From contig CBDCXV010000011.1 in assembly GCA_965223905.1 (NCBI GenBank), positions 1,056,001 to 1,120,000 of the forward strand: a stretch of 64,000 nucleotides of DNA, given 5' to 3'. The notes beneath the pieces were generated by a model, which did no database searches, was not told the DNA's origin, and saw nothing but the letters and a program-made list of their open reading frames with translations. Of the stretch, positions 1-10,149 are shown one piece after another. Origin of the DNA: Candidatus Latescibacterota bacterium (GTDB lineage Bacteria > Latescibacterota > UBA2968 > UBA8231). Made by a program: the position numbers and the translations under genes. Within the stretch, counting starts at the first letter, position 1. Each line of letters opens with the position of its first letter.

Positions 1-237
1 CTGTCGCGTCTCGATCCTGTTCACCGCGCTTGAGACAATCTCTTCCTCTCCCTCCTGCATTTCCCCTTGCAGATCGCCATGATCCTCCGCCGCCCCGAGT
101 GTCGCAGCGTTGGCGAGTTCAGAAGTCAGGACCGTGGAGTCATCTGCAAAGAATGCGGTTAACTCCAGAAAATCGGCGGCGAGATCGACATCGATCGACG
201 GTCCGGAAACCGCGTCTATTGGTAGATAAAGAGGCAT
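1..237 (-). CDS. 5' part of a hypothetical protein coupled to the ParB-like gene (possible restriction-endonuclease-like partner); runs off the window
   Basis: TGATG overlap with the upstream stop at 237; reads MPLYLPIDAVSGPSIDVDLAADFLELTAFF...; possible frameshift near 60. Confidence 0.55.
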   Translation of the reverse strand, partial: MPLYLPIDAVSGPSIDVDLAADFLELTAFFADDSTVLTSELANAATLGAAEDHGDLQGEMQEGEEEIVSSAVNRIETRQ

Positions 238-1370
238 CACTCCCCCGCGCTGGCGTCACGGTACTTCCGGGACATGCTATGATACAGGCTATCCGCCGTT
301 TCCTTTACATCCTCGGCGATGTCGAGCAGGGACCTGTCCATTCCGTCGTAAGCCCGCAGTGAACCTGTTGCTTCACGGACCGCATCCCGCGCACGCAGCA
401 GCGACGCAGTAAACCGTTTGTCCACGGGCTCCGTGCTGGCGTGTGCCTGATCGAGATTACCCCTTTGCTCCAGGACATGTCGCCCCTCCGCGTGGGCGAG
501 CACCTCCCCCAATCGCTTGATGTCCGGGTTCTGCGTAGTCACCACCGGCCGCGCGTCGTCCGACTTCGATCCATAGATCCAGACGAGCACCTTTCGAAGC
601 TCATCCAGCTTCTCCCGGGGAACCTGATCCGGTTTCGGGTCGTGTCGCGCCCAAGCGGGTTCGAGGCCCAGATACTCCATGTACTGGGAGCGCGAAAGCG
701 CAGTGTACAGATGGGAGAAATTAAACTTGCTGATGTGGCGATCTTCGACCTCGAACAGCCTCTCTTCATTCGCCTGCTCCAGCACGCAGATTGCCGACAC
801 CATCCGCTTGATCGTATCGTGCCGGTCGCCGATGGCAGTCGCGATCTGCTCGAGGTCCAACCCTTGAGATCGCCCCGACCGGTACCATTCCGCTGCGAAA
901 CGGGCCTTGGCGTAAGCGTCCCACTTGGCCGGGCCGTTGATGTGCTTATACCCGATGAACGCCCGCGCGTGCTCCCGGTTTTCGACGAGGTAGACCGACA
1001 CTTGATCCAAGGTACTGCGCACCGCATCGTCGATCTCGGGCACCGCTATACGGGTATCTTCCGAGGACGCGATCCTGCCAACCAAGGCCGGTTCCACCAA
1101 AAGACGAAGCGTGGCGAGCCTCCGGTTTCCCTCAAGGACGATCAGCGTGTCACCTTCAGAGGCGCGCATGACGACGAGCGGCTCGATGTCGAGGTACCCG
1201 TTGGCGGATATCGACTGAAGAAGCTCGTCGAGCTCCGCTGAGCGGTAGAGCCGCGCAATGATCGACTCGTCGGATGCATCCTCCGCCTGGCCTAACAGCC
1301 GCGGGTTTCTACGATCCAGTCGAAGCCTCTCTACCGGCACCTTGGTGGTCGTTTCAAGTTCCATTGGCAA
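237..1370 (-). CDS. ParB/Sulfiredoxin-like N-terminal domain protein
   Basis: Motifs LRLDRRNPR, GYLDIEPLVV, VLEGNRRLATL typical of ParB-N fold proteins in defence islands; AGAAGGA RBS upstream. Confidence 0.8.
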   Translation of the reverse strand: MPMELETTTKVPVERLRLDRRNPRLLGQAEDASDESIIARLYRSAELDELLQSISANGYLDIEPLVVMRASEGDTLIVLEGNRRLATLRLLVEPALVGRIASSEDTRIAVPEIDDAVRSTLDQVSVYLVENREHARAFIGYKHINGPAKWDAYAKARFAAEWYRSGRSQGLDLEQIATAIGDRHDTIKRMVSAICVLEQANEERLFEVEDRHISKFNFSHLYTALSRSQYMEYLGLEPAWARHDPKPDQVPREKLDELRKVLVWIYGSKSDDARPVVTTQNPDIKRLGEVLAHAEGRHVLEQRGNLDQAHASTEPVDKRFTASLLRARDAVREATGSLRAYDGMDRSLLDIAEDVKETADSLYHSMSRKYRDASAGE

Positions 1371-1607
1371 CCGTCCTTCTCCATTTTCTGGCTATGACCG
1401 ACACCAAGTTTCCACCCCACTACCTGACAGAGAGCATTCCCCAGTTCAACCGTCCCAGCGACCGACCATCTTGCACCGATACTGCGTTGGATGCAGTTCC
1501 GGCACATATGCCCCATAAGCGGGGGGGCCGTATCTCTTCTACAATGACCAGGTACTCAGTCTGTGACATCTCCACCATTCGTGTCAGTTCTATTTGGCAC
1601 GCCTGCC

Positions 1608-1638
1608 CGAGGCCAAGTTCGGAGGTGTCGGTGGGCAC
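1608..1638 (-). pseudogene. Type I R-M HsdR 5'-end stub 1 (MPTDTSELGL)
   Basis: Resembles the M(T/P)TDTSExGLE N-terminus of an HsdR family; similarity stops after GGCCTCG. Confidence 0.6.
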
Positions 1639-1646
1639 TGTGAAGC

Positions 1647-2060
1647 CTATTGCTCTGCGAACGGGTTTATGACCCGGAGGCCATCGTAGTCCTGTTCCGA
1701 ACTGAGGTCCTCAGAATAGACCACGTCGCAGCCGAGGGTCCGGGCTGCGGCAAGGATCGCGCCGTTCCAATAAGACAGCCGAAAACGTCGGCTGATGGCC
1801 ACGGCCTCGAGAAAAACGTCTATCGTCATGGTCTGAATCCGGAACAGCAGAATCGGCTCCAGGAATTGCAATGCTCTATTGCCAGAAAGACTGCGGGTCC
1901 GTGTCGGCCGGGTGGCTTGGTGATAGAACTCCTGCAGCACCTGAACGGACGCGGCGAGGTCGGGTTCTGTCAGGACTTCCCGCGCCCGCGCCCGCTTGTC
2001 GGCCTCCTCCGGGACCTCACTGACGGCGTACAGCAGGACATTGGTATCTACGAATCGCAT
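1647..2060 (-). CDS. vapC: PIN-domain (VapC-like) toxin
   Basis: MRFVDTNVLLYAVS...SVQVLQEFY...VYSEDL; overlaps the upstream antitoxin. Confidence 0.9.
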   Translation of the reverse strand: MRFVDTNVLLYAVSEVPEEADKRARAREVLTEPDLAASVQVLQEFYHQATRPTRTRSLSGNRALQFLEPILLFRIQTMTIDVFLEAVAISRRFRLSYWNGAILAAARTLGCDVVYSEDLSSEQDYDGLRVINPFAEQ

Positions 2061-2410
2061 GGCGAGGTTCTGAGTGCTTCGGAGATGCTGCGCTGCCGCT
2101 CGCGCTCGGCGACAGCCTCGGCCCTTGCCGCGACGCGGTCGTACAACGCCTCTCTGGGAAGGTTGTCGGACATCCGCAACCCAATACCCTGCCCATCGAA
2201 GTTCGCGAGCACTTCCCGCAGCAGCCTGCACCGACGCTGATAGATGGTTTCGCCAGACTCGGCACTGGCTTCGCCCCCCCCATCCGGACCCGCCACCAGA
2301 TGTCTCAGGTAGTCTCGCACCAGGGCCGATACCGACGTGTCCAGCTCCGCCGCGCGGATGCGGGCGAGCCGGTGGGTCTCTTCGTCGACGGATACGGTGA
2401 TGTTCTTCAT
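2048..2410 (-). CDS. Ribbon-helix-helix antitoxin (DUF6364/VapB-like)
   Basis: MKNITVSVDEETHRLARIRAAELDTSVSALVRDYL, directly upstream of the PIN gene. Confidence 0.85.
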   Translation of the reverse strand: MKNITVSVDEETHRLARIRAAELDTSVSALVRDYLRHLVAGPDGGGEASAESGETIYQRRCRLLREVLANFDGQGIGLRMSDNLPREALYDRVAARAEAVAERERQRSISEALRTSPCDS

Positions 2411-2572
2411 GGTCACAGCCTCACAGTTTCTGTGTAACACACTAGTAGGTGCTCATTGGCCGATGGGCAACACCTGCGGTGGCGGGGGAGCTTTAGGGGC
2501 GAGGTTGAAGTCCCTTAGGTAGACCGGCTGGTTGACCCGCCGGTCTTGGAACATGTTGCGCACTGTTTTGGT

Positions 2573-2603
2573 CGAGGCCGCGTTCGGTGGTGTCGGTTGT
2601 CAT
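2573..2603 (-). pseudogene. HsdR 5'-end stub 2 (MTTDTTERGL)
   Basis: ATGA overlap with the DUF1828 stop; ATG ACA ACC GAC ACC ACC GAA CGC GGC CTC G, near-identical to stub 1. Confidence 0.65.
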
Positions 2604-3378
2604 GCCGCTTCGCTCAAGACCGCGGCGAATTCGTCCGGCCGCGACCAGCGCGAAACCATGGACAAAGGCTCGACCAGCCGAAAATCCTCATCCGCCCAGA
2701 CATCGGCGGTATCGTCAAACAACGAGACGAAGGTCAGGGCTTCCGGTCCCGCTGCGAGGTGATTCAGATCGTGCCAGGCGGCCAGCACGTGCTCGGAGAC
2801 CCTGTGTGCTGCGGCGCGATTTCCGGTACTCAGCACCTGGACCAGTGAACTGCGCAGCCTGGTCCGGACGTGAAAATCGACCGTCCAGCCACGTCCCGAC
2901 CTGCCGGCCAGCTTTTCGCCGCGGTCGAAACCGAATTCACGCTCTTTCAAGAAATCGGCTACCTCGTCCGTAATGGACAAGCCGCCCGGGGTTCGGAAGG
3001 TGAACCACAAGTCGGACACCCGCAGCGCCGCCTGCGCAACCCGGGTAACGACATGCGCCAACTCGTCACCGGGCCGGCATCGTGCCTGAAGCATTCCGCG
3101 GTAGAACTCCGTGCCGTGTGTCAGGCACGCATCTTCGATAGGCTGCTTCTGCTTCGGCGATCGGCGGAGGGCCGTCGACTGCATGCGAAGCCAGCCCGTG
3201 GTTTCCGCAAGATCGCTAACCGTCACCACGTCCTCCTGGACCTTGCAGAAAAGATCGATGTTGTCGCCGTCCGGGTAGAGGAACGGCGTGCGAATTCGCA
3301 GATAGTCGCCCTGCTCGGAGCATATGAACGAGGCTCCGATCTTCGCTGGATATCCTGGCACAAGTGGCTGTCTTTCAT
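2600..3378 (-). CDS. DUF1828/DUF1829-like protein, frameshift near the 5' end
   Basis: TPFLYPDGDNIDLF...VTVSDLAET and GRSGRGWTVDF motifs; likely start MKDSHLCQDIQ (3378) lies in a different frame from the body. Confidence 0.75.
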
Positions 3379-3521
3379 CACCACAACTCCTTCTGTGTCG
3401 CAGGCGGTTCTTCCAGTCGCCAAGGGGTTCCATGGTCAGACAGGATCCGCATGGGCTGCTTTGGTATCGAGGTCGCATGGCCGATAGGCAATGCCTGCGG
3501 CCGGATGGCCATCCTGATCTG

Positions 3522-3550
3522 GTAGGGGCAGGTTTCGAACCTGCCCCTAC
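3522..3550. repeat. REP-like GTAG palindrome
   Basis: GTAGGGGCAGGTT-TCG-AACCTGCCCCTAC, perfect 13-bp stem with GTAG/CTAC ends. Confidence 0.8.
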
Positions 3551-3641
3551 GGTCGGAACCCGGAGGCGGTTGCACCGATAGCCGAATAGGGCGGTGCACT
3601 ATAGGACGCTCCAGCCCCTTCCCGCTGGTGTCGGTGGTCCG
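3551..3641 (-). pseudogene. HsdR 5'-end stub 3 (TTDTSGKGLERPI/CTALFG...)
   Basis: Degenerate match to the HsdR N-terminus MTTDTSExGLERLICTALxG; start codon lost, one frameshift; ends at the REP. Confidence 0.6.
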
Positions 3642-3643
3642 CG

Positions 3644-3935
3644 CTATGCCTCGTCTCTCATCGGGATGGGGACTTCCCGTACTTCACCGGGCTGAATTTC
3701 ATCCAATGCAATGCGGATGGCTTCCGTTCTCTGCGAGATGCGCGGCCAAGCGGTGTTCATCAAAACGACCACGGCCACCTGTCTGTTTGACATCGAAGCC
3801 GACTTCTTCAGCACGGTCCAGCAAGTCTCCGTTGGACAAGCCGTCCCAACCGCGCTCCCTGGCCTCTTCAACGACATGGCCGAAAAGCCGGAGGCGCAAC
3901 TGCCTGGGTGTCCCGTTATCAAACAGGATGCGCAT
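3644..3935 (-). pseudogene. DUF5615 PIN-like toxin, internally deleted and frameshifted
   Basis: N-half MRILFDNGTPRQL...LSNGDLLDRAEEVGFDV and C-half VAVVVLMNTAWPRI are in different frames; the expected ITTDQN segment is missing. Confidence 0.75.
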
Positions 3936-4158
3936 GAACGACCTTTGCCCGGAGCTCCTGCGCCACGTGCTCCAGCACCGCCTTCACCTCCGTTTCATCC
4001 ACTCCTCCGAACCACTCGATGAAGTCGTGGATGGTCGCACCCGCAGCAAGGTTCTCGAAAAGGGCGTATACCGGCAAACGGGTGCCGGTAAACACCCAAT
4101 TGCCACTCACCTTGCCGGGTACGCTTTCGACCGCCGGGCACTTGCTCCAGTCTGTCAT
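3919..4158 (-). CDS. DUF433 family antitoxin
   Basis: MTDWSKCPAVESVPGKVSGNWVFTGTRLPV...GATIHDF; AAGGAG RBS; overlaps the DUF5615 gene. Confidence 0.9.
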   Translation of the reverse strand: MTDWSKCPAVESVPGKVSGNWVFTGTRLPVYALFENLAAGATIHDFIEWFGGVDETEVKAVLEHVAQELRAKVVHAHPV

Positions 4159-4271
4159 GCTGTCAACTCCTTTTCGATGGTGTATCAGCTACCGGCCCAA
4201 CACTGCACGAGGCAAACAACCGAAACTGCGGGTGCAGCTCCAATCCGTCATATGGCCACCACCTATTTTTT

Positions 4272-5827
4272 GGGTGTAGCCGCGTTTTTACGCAGCCATG
4301 GTGTAGGGTTGCGAGGTGGTTTTTTTAAGGTACCAGTTCCAGAAGGCCTCCCATCGTTTCGATTGAACGTGGACTCGCAGGTTGAGAATCTGCTGTCCGC
4401 CCTCGCGCCTCCAGCGCATGCCGCTGCGTTTGAGTCGATGGCCGACCAGGGTCTTGGCGGCTGCCTCCACGGGACCACTGGAGAGGATCAAGCCCGAAGC
4501 GTGATAGCCAGCGTAGTCCATTTTATCCCGGTTGTTGCGGAAGTAGCCCAGTTCGGTGGTCGCCTGACGATGGCGTTGTGATCCTTTTGGGAGTGTGCGG
4601 CAATGGTAGACCAGGGAACGGATCAGGCCCTGAACGGCACCGGGCTCATGGCGCAGTTTGTGGCGCCATCGTCGATACCAGCGAAAAGCTTTTCCCGACC
4701 GCTTGCCGAAGAGGTGCTCGGCGGCCTTCGACAGATGCTGGGCGGCGTGGTAGAAGTCGAGAATGCGGGTGAAGCCGTCGAACACCCCGTGCTCCTCCAC
4801 GGTACGCCAGATCTCGCGCTTGCCGTCGGCCAACACCACCCGGTGCTCATAGCTACCCTGCTGCAAGGCCCGACCTGTCTGGTTCACCAAGCCGTTGACC
4901 AAAGTTTCCATTTTCGCCTCCGGCATGCGCGCGGCATAGCGCACGTCGACGCGTTGGGGCTCTTCCCTGTCGGGATTCAGCGGCGTCAGGTAGGTGGCGA
5001 CCATGCCCACCCCCGCCTCTTTCCAGGCCGTGGGGGCGCTGTCGGTTTCGCTGTCCATCGGTCGTTCGGCGGGCCGTCCGCGCTTGGGTGCCGGTTCCCG
5101 CAGGGGCACGGTAACCCCGTCCCAACTGACCACCAGGGTGTCGCCTTCGGGATCCAGTGGCGCCGCTGCTTGCAAGGCCAGCTCGAGTTGTTCGGCGTGA
5201 TCCTCCGCATACTGCCCTACAGTCGTCAACAGGTATTGAATGGCGGTGCGCGAGGGCGGCTCGGGCAGCAGCTCCCCCAAGCAGTCCCGGACCTCGGCAG
5301 GGACCATGCCGGCGCCCAGAAACGCCGTCAGGCGCTCCAGTTCCGGCACCATGAATCGCTTGACCATGCCGCAGCGCTCGTCCAGAGGCACCCGACTCGG
5401 TCCGCCGCGATCGGGCTGATACAGCCGCCGCGCCACCACAACCTTGCCCCACAGGGTCATCCACTCCTTGTCGACCACCTGCTTGAATCGGTACAACTTC
5501 CCCTGGTGTACCACGGTGTCGTCGCTCATTTCACAAGCTTGAGCCAAGCGTTGGAAGCCGCTTCGACCGATGTCGTCCAAACACGAACGAAACTCCCCCA
5601 GCATCTGGCGAAATGCATCCGGTCCTGCTTGCCCGGACTGCAGGCGATGTTCCCACTGCCGGACATTTTCCTGCAGGTTGGTCAGGCGAGCGCTCAAATC
5701 GTGCGTATCTTCCATCTGGGACCCCTTTCCGGTTTTTGGGCTAAGTCGTTACCCCCAAAAGTACAACTCGTACCCGGACTTGGGGTCCCACTCTTGTTAA
5801 GAAATGCGTAAAATGGAGGCTACACCC
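4272..5827 (-). mobile_element. Complete insertion sequence, ISKra4/ISLre2-like (IS256 superfamily)
   Basis: Imperfect 22-bp IRs GGGTGTAGCCgcgtttttACGC / GGGTGTAGCCtccattttACGC; 8-bp DR TATTTTTT at 4264-4271 and 5828-5835. Confidence 0.9.
4288..5715 (-). CDS. ISKra4/ISLre2-family (UPF0236-type) DDE transposase
   Basis: SWDG, LADGKREIW, LDFYHAAQHL and SSGPVEAAAKTLVGHRLKRSGMRW motifs. Confidence 0.9.
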   Translation of the reverse strand: MEDTHDLSARLTNLQENVRQWEHRLQSGQAGPDAFRQMLGEFRSCLDDIGRSGFQRLAQACEMSDDTVVHQGKLYRFKQVVDKEWMTLWGKVVVARRLYQPDRGGPSRVPLDERCGMVKRFMVPELERLTAFLGAGMVPAEVRDCLGELLPEPPSRTAIQYLLTTVGQYAEDHAEQLELALQAAAPLDPEGDTLVVSWDGVTVPLREPAPKRGRPAERPMDSETDSAPTAWKEAGVGMVATYLTPLNPDREEPQRVDVRYAARMPEAKMETLVNGLVNQTGRALQQGSYEHRVVLADGKREIWRTVEEHGVFDGFTRILDFYHAAQHLSKAAEHLFGKRSGKAFRWYRRWRHKLRHEPGAVQGLIRSLVYHCRTLPKGSQRHRQATTELGYFRNNRDKMDYAGYHASGLILSSGPVEAAAKTLVGHRLKRSGMRWRREGGQQILNLRVHVQSKRWEAFWNWYLKKTTSQPYTMAA

Positions 5828-7251
5828 TATTTTTTGATTCCCTGCTCTTCTGCCGATTCTTCGGCGTCGCCGGAGAGGTCTTCTTCAGGCAGTTCAGCCG
5901 ACGCCTCGCGCACGTCGAGTTTGCCGGTGACGGCATCGGCGATCAGGCGGGTGCGGTATTCGTTGAGGAGGTCGATCTGACGGCGACTGCAATCAAGGGC
6001 GTTGTCTTTATTGGTCCTCCACTTATCTACGAAGTTGACAATGGCTATCTGCTCAGGAAAAGGCAACTCAGGCAACATCAATCGGGATACCATTCCCGCG
6101 TTCAGATTATCCATCGTGGCACCGATCGATGACAGACTCAGAGTATCTCTAACCCCTGGTGCATTGAGAACAAGAAGGAGATAGGCAGGTACGAATATTC
6201 CAGACCTTGGTCTAATCCGAAGGCTGCCCGTTCCGCAAAGCCAGCCAGCTTCTATCTCTGTAACCAGCGCGCATCGACCCATTTCTCCACGTCGCGCCAT
6301 AACGATATCGCCAGGCTTTAGTTCGTGTCTTGACAATTCTTCTGCTTTTTTTTGACTAATCGAGATTGAGGGGTCTGGCTCAATGCTGCTATTACGCATA
6401 TGCGACGGGTTAATGACCGGAATTCCACCACTTACATAGTCGCTGGCGTGCAGTTGGCTCCCAAATGGCCCTGTTTGGACTGAGTCTGCTGCTGCCCCCA
6501 GAGAAATTCCCCCCCAATGCTCTGGCACTTCCCGTAACCATTCTACGCCCAAGGACTTATAGGTGGGGTAAGGCAGACCGGTTCGGACGTCGATCTGGCC
6601 CGTGACAGCCTGGTGGATGACGGCCTGCTTCTGCTCCTCAAGCAGCCCAATCAGTTTCTGCTTGGCGCGGATGTAGCGCCGGATGCGCCGGTCGGCGTGG
6701 TCGAGGAAGCGGACGATGGCGGTTTGTTCCTCGGTGGGCGGTTTTGGGAAGGGCTCACATTTCAAAAGCTCCATTGGAATCCGCATGCGGTGAGACAAAA
6801 TACCGTTGCCGATACGAACAAGACTTTCCTGAAACGGCTTCGTCTGAAAGAAGGCGTTCAGATATCGAGGATCATCATCTTTCAACCGCCTTTTAAGCAC
6901 GTAATAAACTGGACTGAGACATCCCGTGTAAGGTGATAGTCCTACGGACCCGATAATGACATTCATGCAGTTCACTACGATGTCATCAGGCCTCACGACT
7001 TTGTATCTTGTGATGTCCTCTGACATCTTATTGCCAATGTTGCCCTTTTCAGAATAGGGAATTACGCCTCGGTCTCGCAGTACCGAGAGAACTTTAACGA
7101 CCTTCCCATTGCTGTTTACCTCACCGCGCTCCTGCAGGATAGCCCCGAGTCGAGGGAGTTCCCAATGCTCCGGCACCTTCCCCAGCCATTCTACACCAGT
7201 GTCCTTCATCTCCGGATACGGTTTCAGTACGCCGACGTTGGGTAACTTCAT
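5827..7251 (-). CDS. hsdS: Type I R-M specificity subunit
   Basis: Repeated conserved blocks PYPEMKDTGVEWLGKVPEHW / PYPTYKSLGVEWLREVPEHW, PPTEEQTAIVRFLD, RTRLIADAVTGKLDVR flanking two AT-richer TRDs. Confidence 0.95.
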   Translation of the reverse strand: MKLPNVGVLKPYPEMKDTGVEWLGKVPEHWELPRLGAILQERGEVNSNGKVVKVLSVLRDRGVIPYSEKGNIGNKMSEDITRYKVVRPDDIVVNCMNVIIGSVGLSPYTGCLSPVYYVLKRRLKDDDPRYLNAFFQTKPFQESLVRIGNGILSHRMRIPMELLKCEPFPKPPTEEQTAIVRFLDHADRRIRRYIRAKQKLIGLLEEQKQAVIHQAVTGQIDVRTGLPYPTYKSLGVEWLREVPEHWGGISLGAAADSVQTGPFGSQLHASDYVSGGIPVINPSHMRNSSIEPDPSISISQKKAEELSRHELKPGDIVMARRGEMGRCALVTEIEAGWLCGTGSLRIRPRSGIFVPAYLLLVLNAPGVRDTLSLSSIGATMDNLNAGMVSRLMLPELPFPEQIAIVNFVDKWRTNKDNALDCSRRQIDLLNEYRTRLIADAVTGKLDVREASAELPEEDLSGDAEESAEEQGIKK

Positions 7252-7466
7252 ACCAAGAGAACCTCATCGCGGACGAAGTGAAGGGGAATCAACTTGGGCC
7301 TCGGCATGGCGTCCTCGAAGTAGCAGTCAATGGCTTCCTTGACGGGGCGGCCGATCTCTTCAACTGTGTCTCCCTGCGAATGGATGCCATATCCAAGCGC
7401 ACTTGCCGTGTAACCACCGTCCACCTCGTCTTCTTTGACCAAAAAAATGATTTCGGCGCTGGACAT
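7248..7466 (-). CDS. HicB-like antitoxin (orphan)
   Basis: EIIFLVKEDEVDGGYTASALGYGIHSQGDTVEEI...KEAIDCYF, a HicB-type fold. Confidence 0.75.
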   Translation of the reverse strand: MSSAEIIFLVKEDEVDGGYTASALGYGIHSQGDTVEEIGRPVKEAIDCYFEDAMPRPKLIPLHFVRDEVLLV

Positions 7467-7502
7467 CGCTCGCTCCTGCGGTATCAGTTTCTCTCTCTTG
7501 GC

Positions 7503-7718
7503 TCAGTCGTCGCGACTATCCGTCGGCCTGCCCTGTGTTGATTGGCGCAATCGCGCGGCCAATTCTTCCAGCGCGGGGTCGGAATACCGCTTGGAATTGA
7601 ACCACTCTATCCGTTCGTCAATCGTCATGTTGGCGGTCTCGGCGACACTGCGGGCGCGGGCTTCGCGCATGAATTTGACGCAGTCGAATTTCTTCTTGGT
7701 GGGACGGGCTTTAGTCAT
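7503..7718 (-). CDS. Small protein, probable antitoxin partner of the HsdM-fused PIN domain
   Basis: MTKARPTKKKFDCVKFMREAR; overlaps the PIN stop; resembles small KxFDCVxMxR proteins that follow PIN genes. Confidence 0.6.
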   Translation of the reverse strand: MTKARPTKKKFDCVKFMREARARSVAETANMTIDERIEWFNSKRYSDPALEELAARLRQSTQGRPTDSRDD

Positions 7719-10149
7719 GGGCAATTTCCTCCGGAGTTCGAATGTCAATAGCAGAGTAGCCGTTCTCTCGATTTACCTTGTTGCAGACCCTGATGCGCCG
7801 CCAGTTCACCATGTGCCTGAAGTTCCAGCTCACCAGGACATCGGCCTTGGCCAAGGTCGCGAGAGCGATGTGCAGCGCATCGTTCAGGTTGGCCCCACCC
7901 ATGGCCCCAGCCGAGATGTAGGCATCGGCAAGCTCTTCTGCCTCTCTTGAAGTGGCGAGCAGCTCCGCGTGTTCCGGGGGAACGGTGCTGGTTGCCTGCC
8001 TGACGGAGGGCGGAGCATCCGCAAGTTCATCCAGAGTGATGCCCGAGAGGAGCATCTTGGCTTCTCCTTGGCGAAACATCTCGAACAACTGCATCGATTG
8101 TTCGCGGAATTCATCGTCATGGCAGCCGCCGATCACCGAGGTGTCCACGTAGATGCGCGGCTTGCCGTACTCAGTCGGCGGTTCGCGCACCATCGGCAGA
8201 TCGCCGAGCAGCCCCTCAGTCTCTTTCTCTATCTCTAGAATATCCGCCCCGATCTCCTGCAGCGTCCGCATCGGCTGGGGCTTGTAGAAGTACCGCGTGA
8301 AGCTGATCTCGTAGCCGATCCTCACGCTGTCCGGTTGAGACCAGGCGTCACCGGCATAGGGCAGGACCTCCCGCCGCAGGAACGCTTCGATACCCCCTTC
8401 TTCCTGCAGCGGAATCTGCTCGGTGTCGCGCAGATCGGTGTCCGGTTCGTACTCCACCACGACGGACCTGCCGTTGACCGTGGCCTCGAACCGGCCGCGC
8501 AGCGGGTCGGCCTCCGTGCCTCGTTCGTGGATCTTCCGGACGACGGGCGGCGCGGTCTCGCTGCGCTCGCAACTCTCCTTCAGCTTCTTGATCTCGGCGG
8601 CCTTGTAGGCGCGGTTGGAGTCAACTCCCTCAAGCCGCAGCGGCCGTTCGACCGTCACCTTCCAGTAGCCGAAAGCGGCGTTGTCGAAGATCCTGCTCTG
8701 CTCGCTCTCCTCGAAGGCGAGGAAGGTGTCGCAGATGCGCTGGATGTCCTCCCCGCCGAGCTCGCAGTTCTTCTTGCCCAGGTTCTTGCGCAGCGGCCGG
8801 TGCCACCCGGTGGCGTCGATCAGCTGCACCTTGCCCCGGCGATGCTCCGGCTTGCGGTTGGTGAGCACCCAGACGTAGGTGGCGATGCCGGTGTTGTAGA
8901 ACATGTTGAGGGGCAGGGCGACGATCGCCTCCAGCCAGTCGTTCTCGATGATCCAGCGACGGATGTTGCTCTCGCCCTGCCCGGCGTCGCCGGTGAACAG
9001 GGAGCTGCCGTTGTGCACCTCGGCGATGCGGCTGCCGCCCGGCTTCATCTTGGAGAGCTTGTTGGCGAGGAAGAGCATCTGGCCGTCGCTGGAGCGGGTG
9101 ACCAGGGAGTACTCGGGATCGCCGGCATGCTCGATCACGAAGCGCGGGTCGCGCATGTCGCTCTTGCCGCCCATGCGCTCCAGGTCGGTCTTCCAGCTCT
9201 TGCCGTAGGGCGGATTGGAGAGCATGAAGTCGAACTCGCGGGAGGGGAAGGCGTCGTTGGCCAGGGTGGAGTGCTCGGGGCCGCCCACGATGTTGTCGGC
9301 GGCGTCCCCTTCCCCCTTCAGCAGCAGGTCGGCCTTGCAGATGGCGTAGGTCTCGGCATTGATCTCCTGGCCGAACAGGTGGGTGGAGACCTGCCTGCCG
9401 CGTTCGGCGGCGAGTTGCTGCAGCACGTCCTCGGCCACGGTCAGCATGCCGCCGGTGCCGCAGGCCCCGTCGTAGATCAGGTAGGTGCCGGACTTGATCC
9501 GGCCGGCGACGGGCAGGAAGACCAGCTTCGCCATCAGGGTCACGGCGTCGCGCGGGGTCCAGTGCTCGCCCGCCTCCTCGTTGTTCTCCTCGTTGAAGCG
9601 CCGGATCAGCTCCTCGAAGATCGTGCCCATGCCGTGGTTGTCGAGGCCGGGGTGCCTGACCGCGCCGTCGGCGTTGTGCACGGGGGCCGGGCTCAGGTTG
9701 ATGTCGGGGGAGGTCAGCTTCTCGATCAGCGTGCCCAGGGCGTCGGCCCTGGAAAGCCGCGATACCTGGTTGCGGAACTCGAAGTTTTCGAGGATGTCCT
9801 GGACGCTGGGCGAGAACCCGTCGAGCCAGGCGCGGAAGTCGGCCTCGAGCTGCTGGCGGTTGGCGCGGGCGCGCAGGTCGCTCAGGGTGAATTTCGAGGT
9901 GTTGTAGAAGGCCTCCCCGGCGACCTGCCGCAGGGTCGCATCCTGTTCGATGACGCCGGCGTCGTCGAGGGTGGCCTTCATCTCCAGGACCGCCTGCTTG
10001 CTGTCCTCCAGCACCGCGTCGAGCCGGCGCAGCACGGTCATCGGCAGGATCACGTCGCGGTACTTGCCGCGCACGTAGAGGTCGCGCAGGACGTCGTCGG
10101 CGATGCCCCAGATGTAGTTCGCGATCCAGTTGAGGTCGCCGTTGCTCAT
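7711..10149 (-). CDS. hsdM: Type I R-M methyltransferase subunit with C-terminal PIN domain
   Basis: IWGIADDVLRD, YDGACGTGGML (motif I), NPPY (motif IV), GYEISFTRYFY; then in-frame IYVDTSVIGG...DALHIALAT...VSWNFRH PIN domain. Confidence 0.95.
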   Translation of the reverse strand: MSNGDLNWIANYIWGIADDVLRDLYVRGKYRDVILPMTVLRRLDAVLEDSKQAVLEMKATLDDAGVIEQDATLRQVAGEAFYNTSKFTLSDLRARANRQQLEADFRAWLDGFSPSVQDILENFEFRNQVSRLSRADALGTLIEKLTSPDINLSPAPVHNADGAVRHPGLDNHGMGTIFEELIRRFNEENNEEAGEHWTPRDAVTLMAKLVFLPVAGRIKSGTYLIYDGACGTGGMLTVAEDVLQQLAAERGRQVSTHLFGQEINAETYAICKADLLLKGEGDAADNIVGGPEHSTLANDAFPSREFDFMLSNPPYGKSWKTDLERMGGKSDMRDPRFVIEHAGDPEYSLVTRSSDGQMLFLANKLSKMKPGGSRIAEVHNGSSLFTGDAGQGESNIRRWIIENDWLEAIVALPLNMFYNTGIATYVWVLTNRKPEHRRGKVQLIDATGWHRPLRKNLGKKNCELGGEDIQRICDTFLAFEESEQSRIFDNAAFGYWKVTVERPLRLEGVDSNRAYKAAEIKKLKESCERSETAPPVVRKIHERGTEADPLRGRFEATVNGRSVVVEYEPDTDLRDTEQIPLQEEGGIEAFLRREVLPYAGDAWSQPDSVRIGYEISFTRYFYKPQPMRTLQEIGADILEIEKETEGLLGDLPMVREPPTEYGKPRIYVDTSVIGGCHDDEFREQSMQLFEMFRQGEAKMLLSGITLDELADAPPSVRQATSTVPPEHAELLATSREAEELADAYISAGAMGGANLNDALHIALATLAKADVLVSWNFRHMVNWRRIRVCNKVNRENGYSAIDIRTPEEIAHD

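Follow-up and report, generated by a model that had tools for sequence, protein, structure and literature searches.

Type I restriction-modification (R-M) operons are known to carry embedded genes, including PrrC, TgvAB and the candidates found by guilt-by-embedding (PMC12707154; PMC11411939; bioRxiv 10.1101/2024.01.29.577857), and the well-known presence of defence and toxin–antitoxin (TA) genes inside R-M operons has been used to discover new defence genes. These works cover what is embedded and not how it arrived; in the main text of the bioRxiv article, the words recombination, remnant, truncated and hsdR each occur 0 times. R-M gene complexes themselves insert with a long, variable target duplication and without mobility genes (Furuta, Abe and Kobayashi 2010, PMC2853133). 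How cargo enters R-M operons is not worked out in the titles and abstract openings of the literature searched, and the same material, searched for hsdR remnants or stubs, describes no serial in-operon stack with hsd gene-end scars across phyla. Here we analyse a 64,000-nt stretch of DNA from a Candidatus Latescibacterota bacterium (GCA_965223905.1, contig CBDCXV010000011.1, positions 1,056,001 to 1,120,000; hereafter the window), in which a type I R-M operon holds a stack of defence and TA cargo between hsdS and hsdR. Three cargo blocks each end in a short remnant, or stub, of the hsdR 5′ end, and these stubs are probably scars of recombination between alleles. As in the embedded systems, the cargo lies between hsd genes in the same orientation, and its DUF1828 gene matches the PADLOC family PDC-M24B; the differences here are the serial stacking and the scars at the boundaries.

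Integron cassette arrays and integrase-less attC clusters are one-way arrays of small cargo units closed by a recurring sequence. The present locus is likewise a one-way array in which each unit is closed by a recurring sequence, but it lacks an integrase, attC-like inverted repeats and a fixed crossover point, and what recurs is the beginning of the coding sequence of the gene downstream. Tandem island accretion at gene ends (tRNA 3′ ends, the dusA 5′ end) depends on the island's own integrase and a fixed identity segment and leaves partial gene copies behind. The likeness is that each arrival replaces the gene end while the old end remains, with partial copies marking the boundaries; neither an integrase nor a fixed identity segment was found here, however. 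In homology-facilitated illegitimate recombination of naturally transformable bacteria, a homologous anchor and a join at a few bases of microhomology together give additive integration. The mechanism at this locus is probably ordinary recombination and not dedicated cassette machinery.

The genes of interest all lie on the minus strand. Reading downstream, an hsdM–PIN-like fusion is followed by an 81-aa gene, a HicB-like gene, hsdS and an ISKra4-family insertion sequence (IS), then by DUF433, a broken DUF5615 gene, stub 1, DUF1828, stub 2, vapBC and stub 3, and finally by a ParB-like gene and a 332-aa gene that crosses the window edge. The whole-genome view places a DNA methylase gene and then an intact hsdR behind the 332-aa gene, outside the window. 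As first noticed in the initial annotation, which was made from the sequence alone, the pattern ACCGACACCNNCGR occurs three times in the window, always on the minus strand (1619–1632, 2584–2597 and 3622–3635), against 0.07 occurrences expected from shuffles, and 0 of 100 shuffles contain three. Each occurrence belongs to one stub:

3546–3641, minus strand: stub 1, about 90 nt of a divergent TDTSEKGLE-type hsdR 5′ end, start codon lost (nhmmer, positions 1–89 of the hsdR 5′ profile)
2572–2603, minus strand: stub 2, start codon and 26 nt of the hsdR 5′ end (25/26 to the resident hsdR)
1608–1638, minus strand: stub 3, GTG start and 25–27 nt of the hsdR 5′ end (25/27 to the resident hsdR)

Alignment of the stubs to HsdR N-termini, by comparison with the resident gene and with an hsdR 5′ profile built from 32 intact alleles, confirms them as remnants of the HsdR N-terminal coding region. 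Stub 1 agrees with the resident hsdR at 14/14 positions and then continues by profile-search similarity to about 89 nt; the original estimate of ~33 nt for its length was thus too short by the hsdR 5′ profile. The start codon of stub 2 overlaps the DUF1828 stop codon as ATGA, and the stub is identical to the G020 and G129b alleles (26/26). Stub 3 goes unreported by nhmmer in a large search and is found in a small database with an E-value of 3.9e-4. Stubs 2 and 3 lose similarity at nearly the same point, as was seen at the outset; they end 1–2 nt apart, at profile positions 26 and 25. Each of the two starts an open reading frame (ORF), of 36 and 72 aa respectively, that runs on into pieces of unrelated genes. 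A Pfam scan of the stub 3 ORF and of a 73-aa ORF over the stub 1 tail gave no match to either.

The initial annotation also stated that no full hsdR is present, which holds for the window and not for the genome. An intact hsdR of 1004 aa, in a stop-free frame, lies at C11:1051054–1054065 on the minus strand, the same strand as the stubs, and starts at window coordinate −1935 (C11:1054065), 1.9 kb past the left window edge. Its product begins with MTVRTTDTSERGLERLIC. The NCBIfam hsdR model matches the gene with an E-value of 1.7e-58 and 198.7 bits, below the model cut-off of 284.55. In a six-frame search of the whole 7.9-Mb genome, the motif TDT[ST]..GL with this context occurs in the three stubs and the intact hsdR only, and the remaining hsdR genes of the genome have unrelated N-termini. 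Across 29 alleles, mean nucleotide identity is 0.81 in codons 1–10, 0.52 in codons 21–30 and 0.76 overall; the first 10 codons therefore form a small conserved island, behind which the gene is at its most variable. Over the first 300 residues, hsdR is 72–85% identical in Binatia, Acidobacteriota, Spirochaetia, Proteobacteria, Dehalococcoidia and others, which points to wide horizontal transfer of the operon.

We then compared the locus with three sets of loci. Set 1 contains 21 loci, from this genome and the 20 best hsdR matches among 61 relatives. Set 2 contains 20 loci from a pattern scan of 132 class genomes and is biased, four of them having been chosen for two close hits. Set 3 contains 79 loci, one genome per species across all prokaryotes, with 66 outside Latescibacterota. 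Each stub retains a native junction between cargo and hsdR that is known elsewhere with an intact hsdR. At 7 or more of the 41 loci from the class, an intact hsdR follows immediately on the vapC 3′ end, with the junction of stub 3. The DUF1828–hsdR junction of stub 2 recurs with an intact hsdR at four of the 66 other-phylum loci (L088, L090, L099 and L115), where the two genes are coupled by an overlapping stop and start (ATGA or GTGA). At stub 1 the junction is DUF5615 followed by TAG-CGTG-ACC..., with the GTG decayed here; the same junction leads into an intact TDTSEKGLE-type hsdR at, for example, L127 and L147. These junctions turn up repeatedly, in Latescibacterota, Binatia, Acidobacteriota, Spirochaetia and others. 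The stubs, moreover, differ from the resident allele and among themselves. The native cargo junctions and the allele identities of the stubs, with stub 2 perfectly matched in other genomes and the TDTSEKGLE type of stub 1 linked to DUF5615, therefore support a stack assembled from different hsdR alleles, in line with the early proposal that cargo from different R-M alleles had been stacked.

The related loci bear out the expectation that the hsdS–hsdR gap carries accessory genes and that this cargo varies. An hsdS end can be recognised at 58 of the 66 other-phylum loci; at 7 of these the gap measures at most 150 nt, and at 34 it exceeds 1 kb. Across the other-phylum loci it contains DUF433 in 21, DUF1828 in 8 and vapB in 6. 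Counting loci with at least one 5′-anchored stub upstream of hsdR (nhmmer E ≤0.01), we find 5 of 21 in set 1, with weaker extra cases in G054 and G052, and 6 of 20 in the biased set 2. Outside the phylum, 3 of 66 loci carry a stub (L094, L111 and L148), internal fragments occur in three more and extra long copies in three. Stub end points from about 16 events, drawn from the class and from other phyla, fall at 25, 26, 40, 42, 50, 52, 54, 55, 59, 65, 70, 78, ~90, 91, 100 and 137 nt. In G077a, G079, G118 and G121, the stub is followed directly by an hsdS 3′ fragment and then by DUF433, and the hsdR/hsdS joints of these four all differ (R1-137|S126, R1-100|S165, R2-78|S79 and R1-65|S93), as would be expected if the 5′ region of hsdR had been linked to the 3′ region of hsdS from a different copy. 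The stub of G121 is identical to its own hsdR over 67/67 positions, and 283 nt of hsdS 3′ end plus DUF433 are duplicated at 97%, which indicates a recent event.

Fragments of hsdM recur in a similar way. Pieces of the hsdM 3′ end are repeated in the hsdM–hsdS gap of G020, G052, G056 (three copies), G057 and G073b, and at loci L031, L032, L036, L047 and L068, mirroring the hsdR stubs at the other gap. At L103:9636–10604, in another phylum, the first ~235 nt of hsdR are present as three tandem copies with a 365-nt period.

The last insertion into the stack measures 3,555 bp in this genome and in G002, and consists of a hicA′/hicB′ relic, the ParB-like gene, the 332-aa gene and the methylase. It lies inside hsdR, 25–27 nt past the conserved ACC, between copies of a 27-bp repeat (25/27), and stub 3 is the left copy of this target duplication. 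The class loci in which vapC runs into an intact hsdR represent its empty site, where the repeat is a single-copy target. At its left end the insert carries the final ~25 nt of a hicA-like gene, and CTC (up to G.CTC; 3–5 nt) is common to the hicA-like source and hsdR at the joint. Microhomology can be read at the stub 3 joint only, several other joints having been reshaped by later deletions. Scans with Pfam, NCBIfam and PADLOC reveal no mobility gene among the three inserted genes. As in the long target duplications of PMC2853133, the insert lacks a mobility gene and is flanked by a direct repeat of variable length that is single-copy in a relative's empty site. There, in contrast, whole R-M systems insert anywhere in the genome and the repeat criterion is >30 bp, whereas here non-R-M cargo has repeatedly entered an R-M operon at the same gene boundary, with a repeat of 27 bp in this genome and 50–137 nt in relatives. 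The last insertion contains a methylase and no recognisable restriction gene, and with its 27-bp repeat it therefore falls outside the definition used in that work.

We consider it quite probable that the stubs are scars of additive homologous-plus-illegitimate recombination between alleles, followed by deletions, and that they are not working sites. The type I R-M family with the order hsdM–hsdS–cargo–hsdR comprises many alleles that differ between hsdS and hsdR. DNA of another allele, or of a misaligned sister copy, would recombine with the resident operon by one homologous crossover within a conserved hsd gene, and the other join would be illegitimate, a few dozen bases into the resident hsdR. 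With one homologous crossover and an illegitimate join inside hsdR, the incoming unit of cargo and hsdR start would be added and the old content would not be replaced, leaving the old hsdR start as a stub. Repetition would build the stack, and later deletions would shorten the stubs and erode the cargo. What these loci show directly is the scars themselves, the empty sites, the alleles from which the stubs derive and the variety of junctions. The spread of end points from 25 to 137 nt, the four differing hsdR|hsdS joints and the duplications at other boundaries (the hsdM 3′ end and the vapB-upstream sequence) support this scheme. Its order of events, and an enzymology of RecA-type crossover and end joining at microhomology, we infer. 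The scheme resembles homology-facilitated illegitimate recombination in that one homologous anchor and a microhomology join would add foreign DNA; the difference is that this process is not known from this phylum.

The stack could, in principle, have been produced by the assembler, through concatenation of alleles from co-existing strains. The source does resemble a community sample with related strains, and contigs from public runs vary at many letters and include a form that lacks the IS and one in which the DUF5615 gene is intact. Against this, G002, a separate one-contig record of a congeneric genome, shares the gene order and all three stubs (its stub 2 is 70 nt long with a stop at codon 10, and its stub 3 is identical to stub 3 here), and similar stacks are found in other complete records such as G118. 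The stub 3 junction (1278–1686) is moreover bridged by contigs of four public runs from two studies and the stub 2 junction (2420–2628) by one public-run contig; these are short Logan contigs, none of which spans two stubs owing to their shortness, and the parts that they leave uncovered are uninformative. We regard an assembly artefact as highly improbable. The stubs might instead have been kept for a function, as leader ORFs that couple translation of the upstream cargo or as regulatory elements, given that the start codon survives in stubs 2 and 3, where it begins the ORFs of 36 and 72 aa, and that stub 2 also retains the overlap with the upstream stop. This hardly seems likely, as stub 1 has no start codon, stub 2 of G002 has another length and its early stop, and the G052 copy of stub 2 is decayed throughout; the stub ORFs also run into unrelated gene fragments and are blank in Pfam where they were scanned.

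The initial annotation proposed that the hsdR start serves as a recurrent recombination landmark in an integron-like hotspot. In a site-specific system of that sort, the first ~26 nt of hsdR would act as an attachment core at which a recombinase encoded elsewhere inserts circular cassettes in tandem. The cargo blocks do share one orientation and the same core closes each of them, the ends of stubs 2 and 3 nearly coincide, a 25-mer is identical in many genomes of several genera, and the last insert sits between 27-bp repeats of its target. The spread of stub end points over 25–137 nt and the four hsdR|hsdS joints speak against a single landmark, however, and pieces of various unrelated genes form the left ends of the inserts, from hicA and a brnA-like gene to the 3′ end of hsdS, which is cut at four different points. 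The block boundaries show no fixed crossover point within imperfect inverted repeats. Similar duplications also occur at other boundaries, namely the hsdM 3′ end and a 23-nt motif upstream of vapB. That no integrase is visible remains correct: within 600 kb there is no match to a tyrosine or serine recombinase, and no integron integrase lies beside the array, the nearest Phage_integrase match on the contig being at ~384 kb against ~1,051–1,066 kb for the locus and the one Resolvase match being on another contig. Rfam, searched over positions 1–8000 at E up to 1, returned 0 matches, the presence of an attC model in Rfam being unverified. We therefore consider integron-like assembly very unlikely. 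An internal origin deserves more weight, although we still think it rather unlikely. Unequal crossing-over between sister chromosomes would produce a tandem duplication of the stretch that begins in the 3′ end of hsdS and closes in the 5′ end of hsdR, and the cargo of each copy would be swapped later by ordinary allelic replacement with the stubs as homology arms. The junctions of hsdR 5′ and hsdS 3′ ends are the classic novel joint of a tandem duplication, G121 and L103 provide a recent duplication and a tandem array, and G000 and G002 differ by local patches in an otherwise ~90–95% identical stack. In this window, by contrast, no stub is followed by an hsdS 3′ fragment, and the three stubs come from three different alleles, so that at least the cargo-plus-stub units would have come from outside.

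Several points weigh against recombination scars between alleles as we propose them. No homologous crossover could be placed among hsdR alleles that are 80–97% alike, and foreign import and unequal sister exchange are indistinguishable for this window. Several junctions have been reshaped by later deletions, and their original joins are partly lost. In addition, stubs 2 and 3, which are independent, end together exactly where the 10-codon conserved island ends. This could reflect a preferred break or crossover point, for which ~16 events are too few to be conclusive. We rejected the common end as proof of a fixed site, given the ~16 end points between 25 and 137 nt and the position of the shortest at the detection floor: stubs much shorter than the 25-nt conserved island are not recognisable, and the two shortest stubs sit at this limit. 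The common end may be due to chance, the detection floor or a local hotspot.

If the stubs are such scars, they form a readable record of which gene stood beside hsdR before each arrival and of cargo drawn from different alleles. Orphan hsdR 5′, hsdS 3′ and hsdM 3′ fragments would then be a simple marker with which to date and order acquisitions in defence loci, and the same marker could test whether TA cargo biases recombination towards accretion. A broader idea, possible although doubtful, is that the conserved hsdM 3′, hsdS 3′ and hsdR 5′ ends act as portable homology arms and make the widely transferred operon an integrase-free cassette platform for the exchange of TA and defence modules across phyla. 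Stacking would then prevail over replacement, as resident TA cargo would punish its own loss and let additive events alone survive, a one-way ratchet recorded by the stubs.

Further features lie between the blocks:

3522–3550, minus strand: hairpin with a perfect 11-bp stem at the end of stub 1, read from the sequence
3478–3500, minus strand: 23-nt vapB-upstream motif, copy 1 (20/23 to copy 2), separated from vapB by the DUF1828 block
2497–2560, minus strand: middle part of a CopG/BrnA-type antitoxin gene, left as a relic and joined to stub 2 (79% to a paralog across 68 nt)
2457–2479, minus strand: 23-nt vapB-upstream motif, copy 2, in its native place (conserved upstream of 18/22 vapB copies)
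1490–1607, minus strand: relic, last ~25 nt of a hicA-like gene and first ~100 nt of a hicB-like gene, after stub 3

The two copies of the 23-nt motif are the only such copies in the genome. Stub 1, motif and vapB follow one another uninterrupted in G057 and G077b; in G111 the order is likewise kept, although the motif has diverged. The DUF1828 block thus sits inside conserved vapB-upstream sequence, with 23 nt duplicated around it. A reading of the motif as decayed hsdR was rejected: the hsdR 5′ profile, run with nhmmer on 22 vapB-upstream segments, gave a best E-value of 0.12, and the control of 20x shuffles gave no matches. The motif might, as a guess, be a promoter; a scan of positions 1300–4300 for the sigma-70 consensus gave 0 sites. 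The paralog of the CopG/BrnA-type relic lies at C11:1044173–1044239 (Pfam CopG_antitoxin, 0.0013) and adjoins a BrnT-like gene, and the junction of the relic with stub 2 is also present in G052. The hicA′/hicB′ relic was aligned to complete hicA/hicB-like genes of G012, G020, G052 and G019. The hairpin was considered as a genome-wide repeat and rejected, since the genome contains two matches, of which one is imperfect and lies on a different contig. Around it, at positions 3501–3750, summed contig depth reaches 5–10x that of neighbouring bins in four runs. The hairpin sequence may be multi-copy in other organisms of those samples, which would account for the spike, given the one exact copy here.

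The operon genes upstream of the stack and the cargo itself are as follows:

7711–10149, minus strand: hsdM with an in-frame C-terminal PIN-like domain, 812 aa (Pfam N6_Mtase 8e-51, HsdM_N 3e-20; PADLOC MTase_I 2.5e-233)
5827–7251, minus strand: hsdS, 474 aa (Pfam Methylase_S 8.8e-10, two stretches)
4262–5825, minus strand: ISKra4-family IS between hsdS and the cargo (NCBIfam transpos_ISKra4 1.4e-53, 182 bits, below the cut-off of 205)
3919–4158, minus strand: cargo 1a, DUF433 gene, 79 aa (Pfam DUF433 4e-11)
3644–3935, minus strand: cargo 1b, DUF5615 (PIN-like) gene broken by a ~40–44-nt deletion and a frameshift (from the reading frames and tblastn relatives)
2600–3478, minus strand: cargo 2, DUF1828 protein, defence candidate PDC-M24B (Pfam DUF1828 4.6e-9; PADLOC PDC-M24B 6.9e-97)
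1647–2410, minus strand: cargo 3, vapB (ribbon-helix-helix, RHH) and vapC (PIN), both intact (Pfam PIN 1e-10; RHH families 1e-3, below their cut-offs)
237–1370, minus strand: cargo 4a, ParB-like protein, 377 aa (PADLOC PD-Lambda-5_A 9e-23)
from 240 off the window edge, minus strand: cargo 4b, 332 aa, no family in Pfam, NCBIfam or PADLOC
outside the window: cargo 4c, type II-like DNA methylase (PADLOC MTase_II 7e-26, Pfam N6_N4_Mtase)

PDC names presumably stand for defence candidates from guilt-by-embedding work. The PIN-like part of the HsdM fusion matches Pfam PIN weakly at aa 666–772 (0.0018, below the cut-off). The fusion has 812 aa against ~651 aa in other alleles, and the fused form is also found in relatives and other phyla (tblastn, q1–809/812 in, for example, L104, L106, L116, L119 and L125). 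An 81-aa gene without a family (7503–7748, minus strand) overlaps its end. The ISKra4-family IS follows directly after the hsdS stop codon and has a 10-nt direct repeat of its own on both sides; it is the only mobile element at the locus and stands outside the stub system. Four full copies are present in the genome, two of them at 99.7–99.9% identity. Contigs of three of four public runs contain the IS-free joint 4261 to 5826, and contigs of three runs have 40 extra letters at 3790–3793, in the DUF5615 gene, so the IS insertion and the DUF5615 deletion are polymorphic. The DUF5615 halves occupy separate frames here and one frame in G002; Pfam matches neither half, and the name is based on tblastn relatives and on a DUF5615 paralog downstream of hsdR. 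Pfam likewise finds nothing in the ParB-like or the 332-aa protein. The trio of ParB-like, 332-aa and methylase genes is also present away from the hsdS–hsdR gap, in L106 and L118. Downstream of hsdR (L069:78–6535, corresponding to C11:1044078–1050535), a DUF5615/PIN-like gene is accompanied by a gene for an 824-aa SMC/ABC-type ATPase with PADLOC mad3 and LmuB-like matches and by a BrnT-like/CopG-antitoxin pair; the defence neighbourhood therefore extends past the operon.

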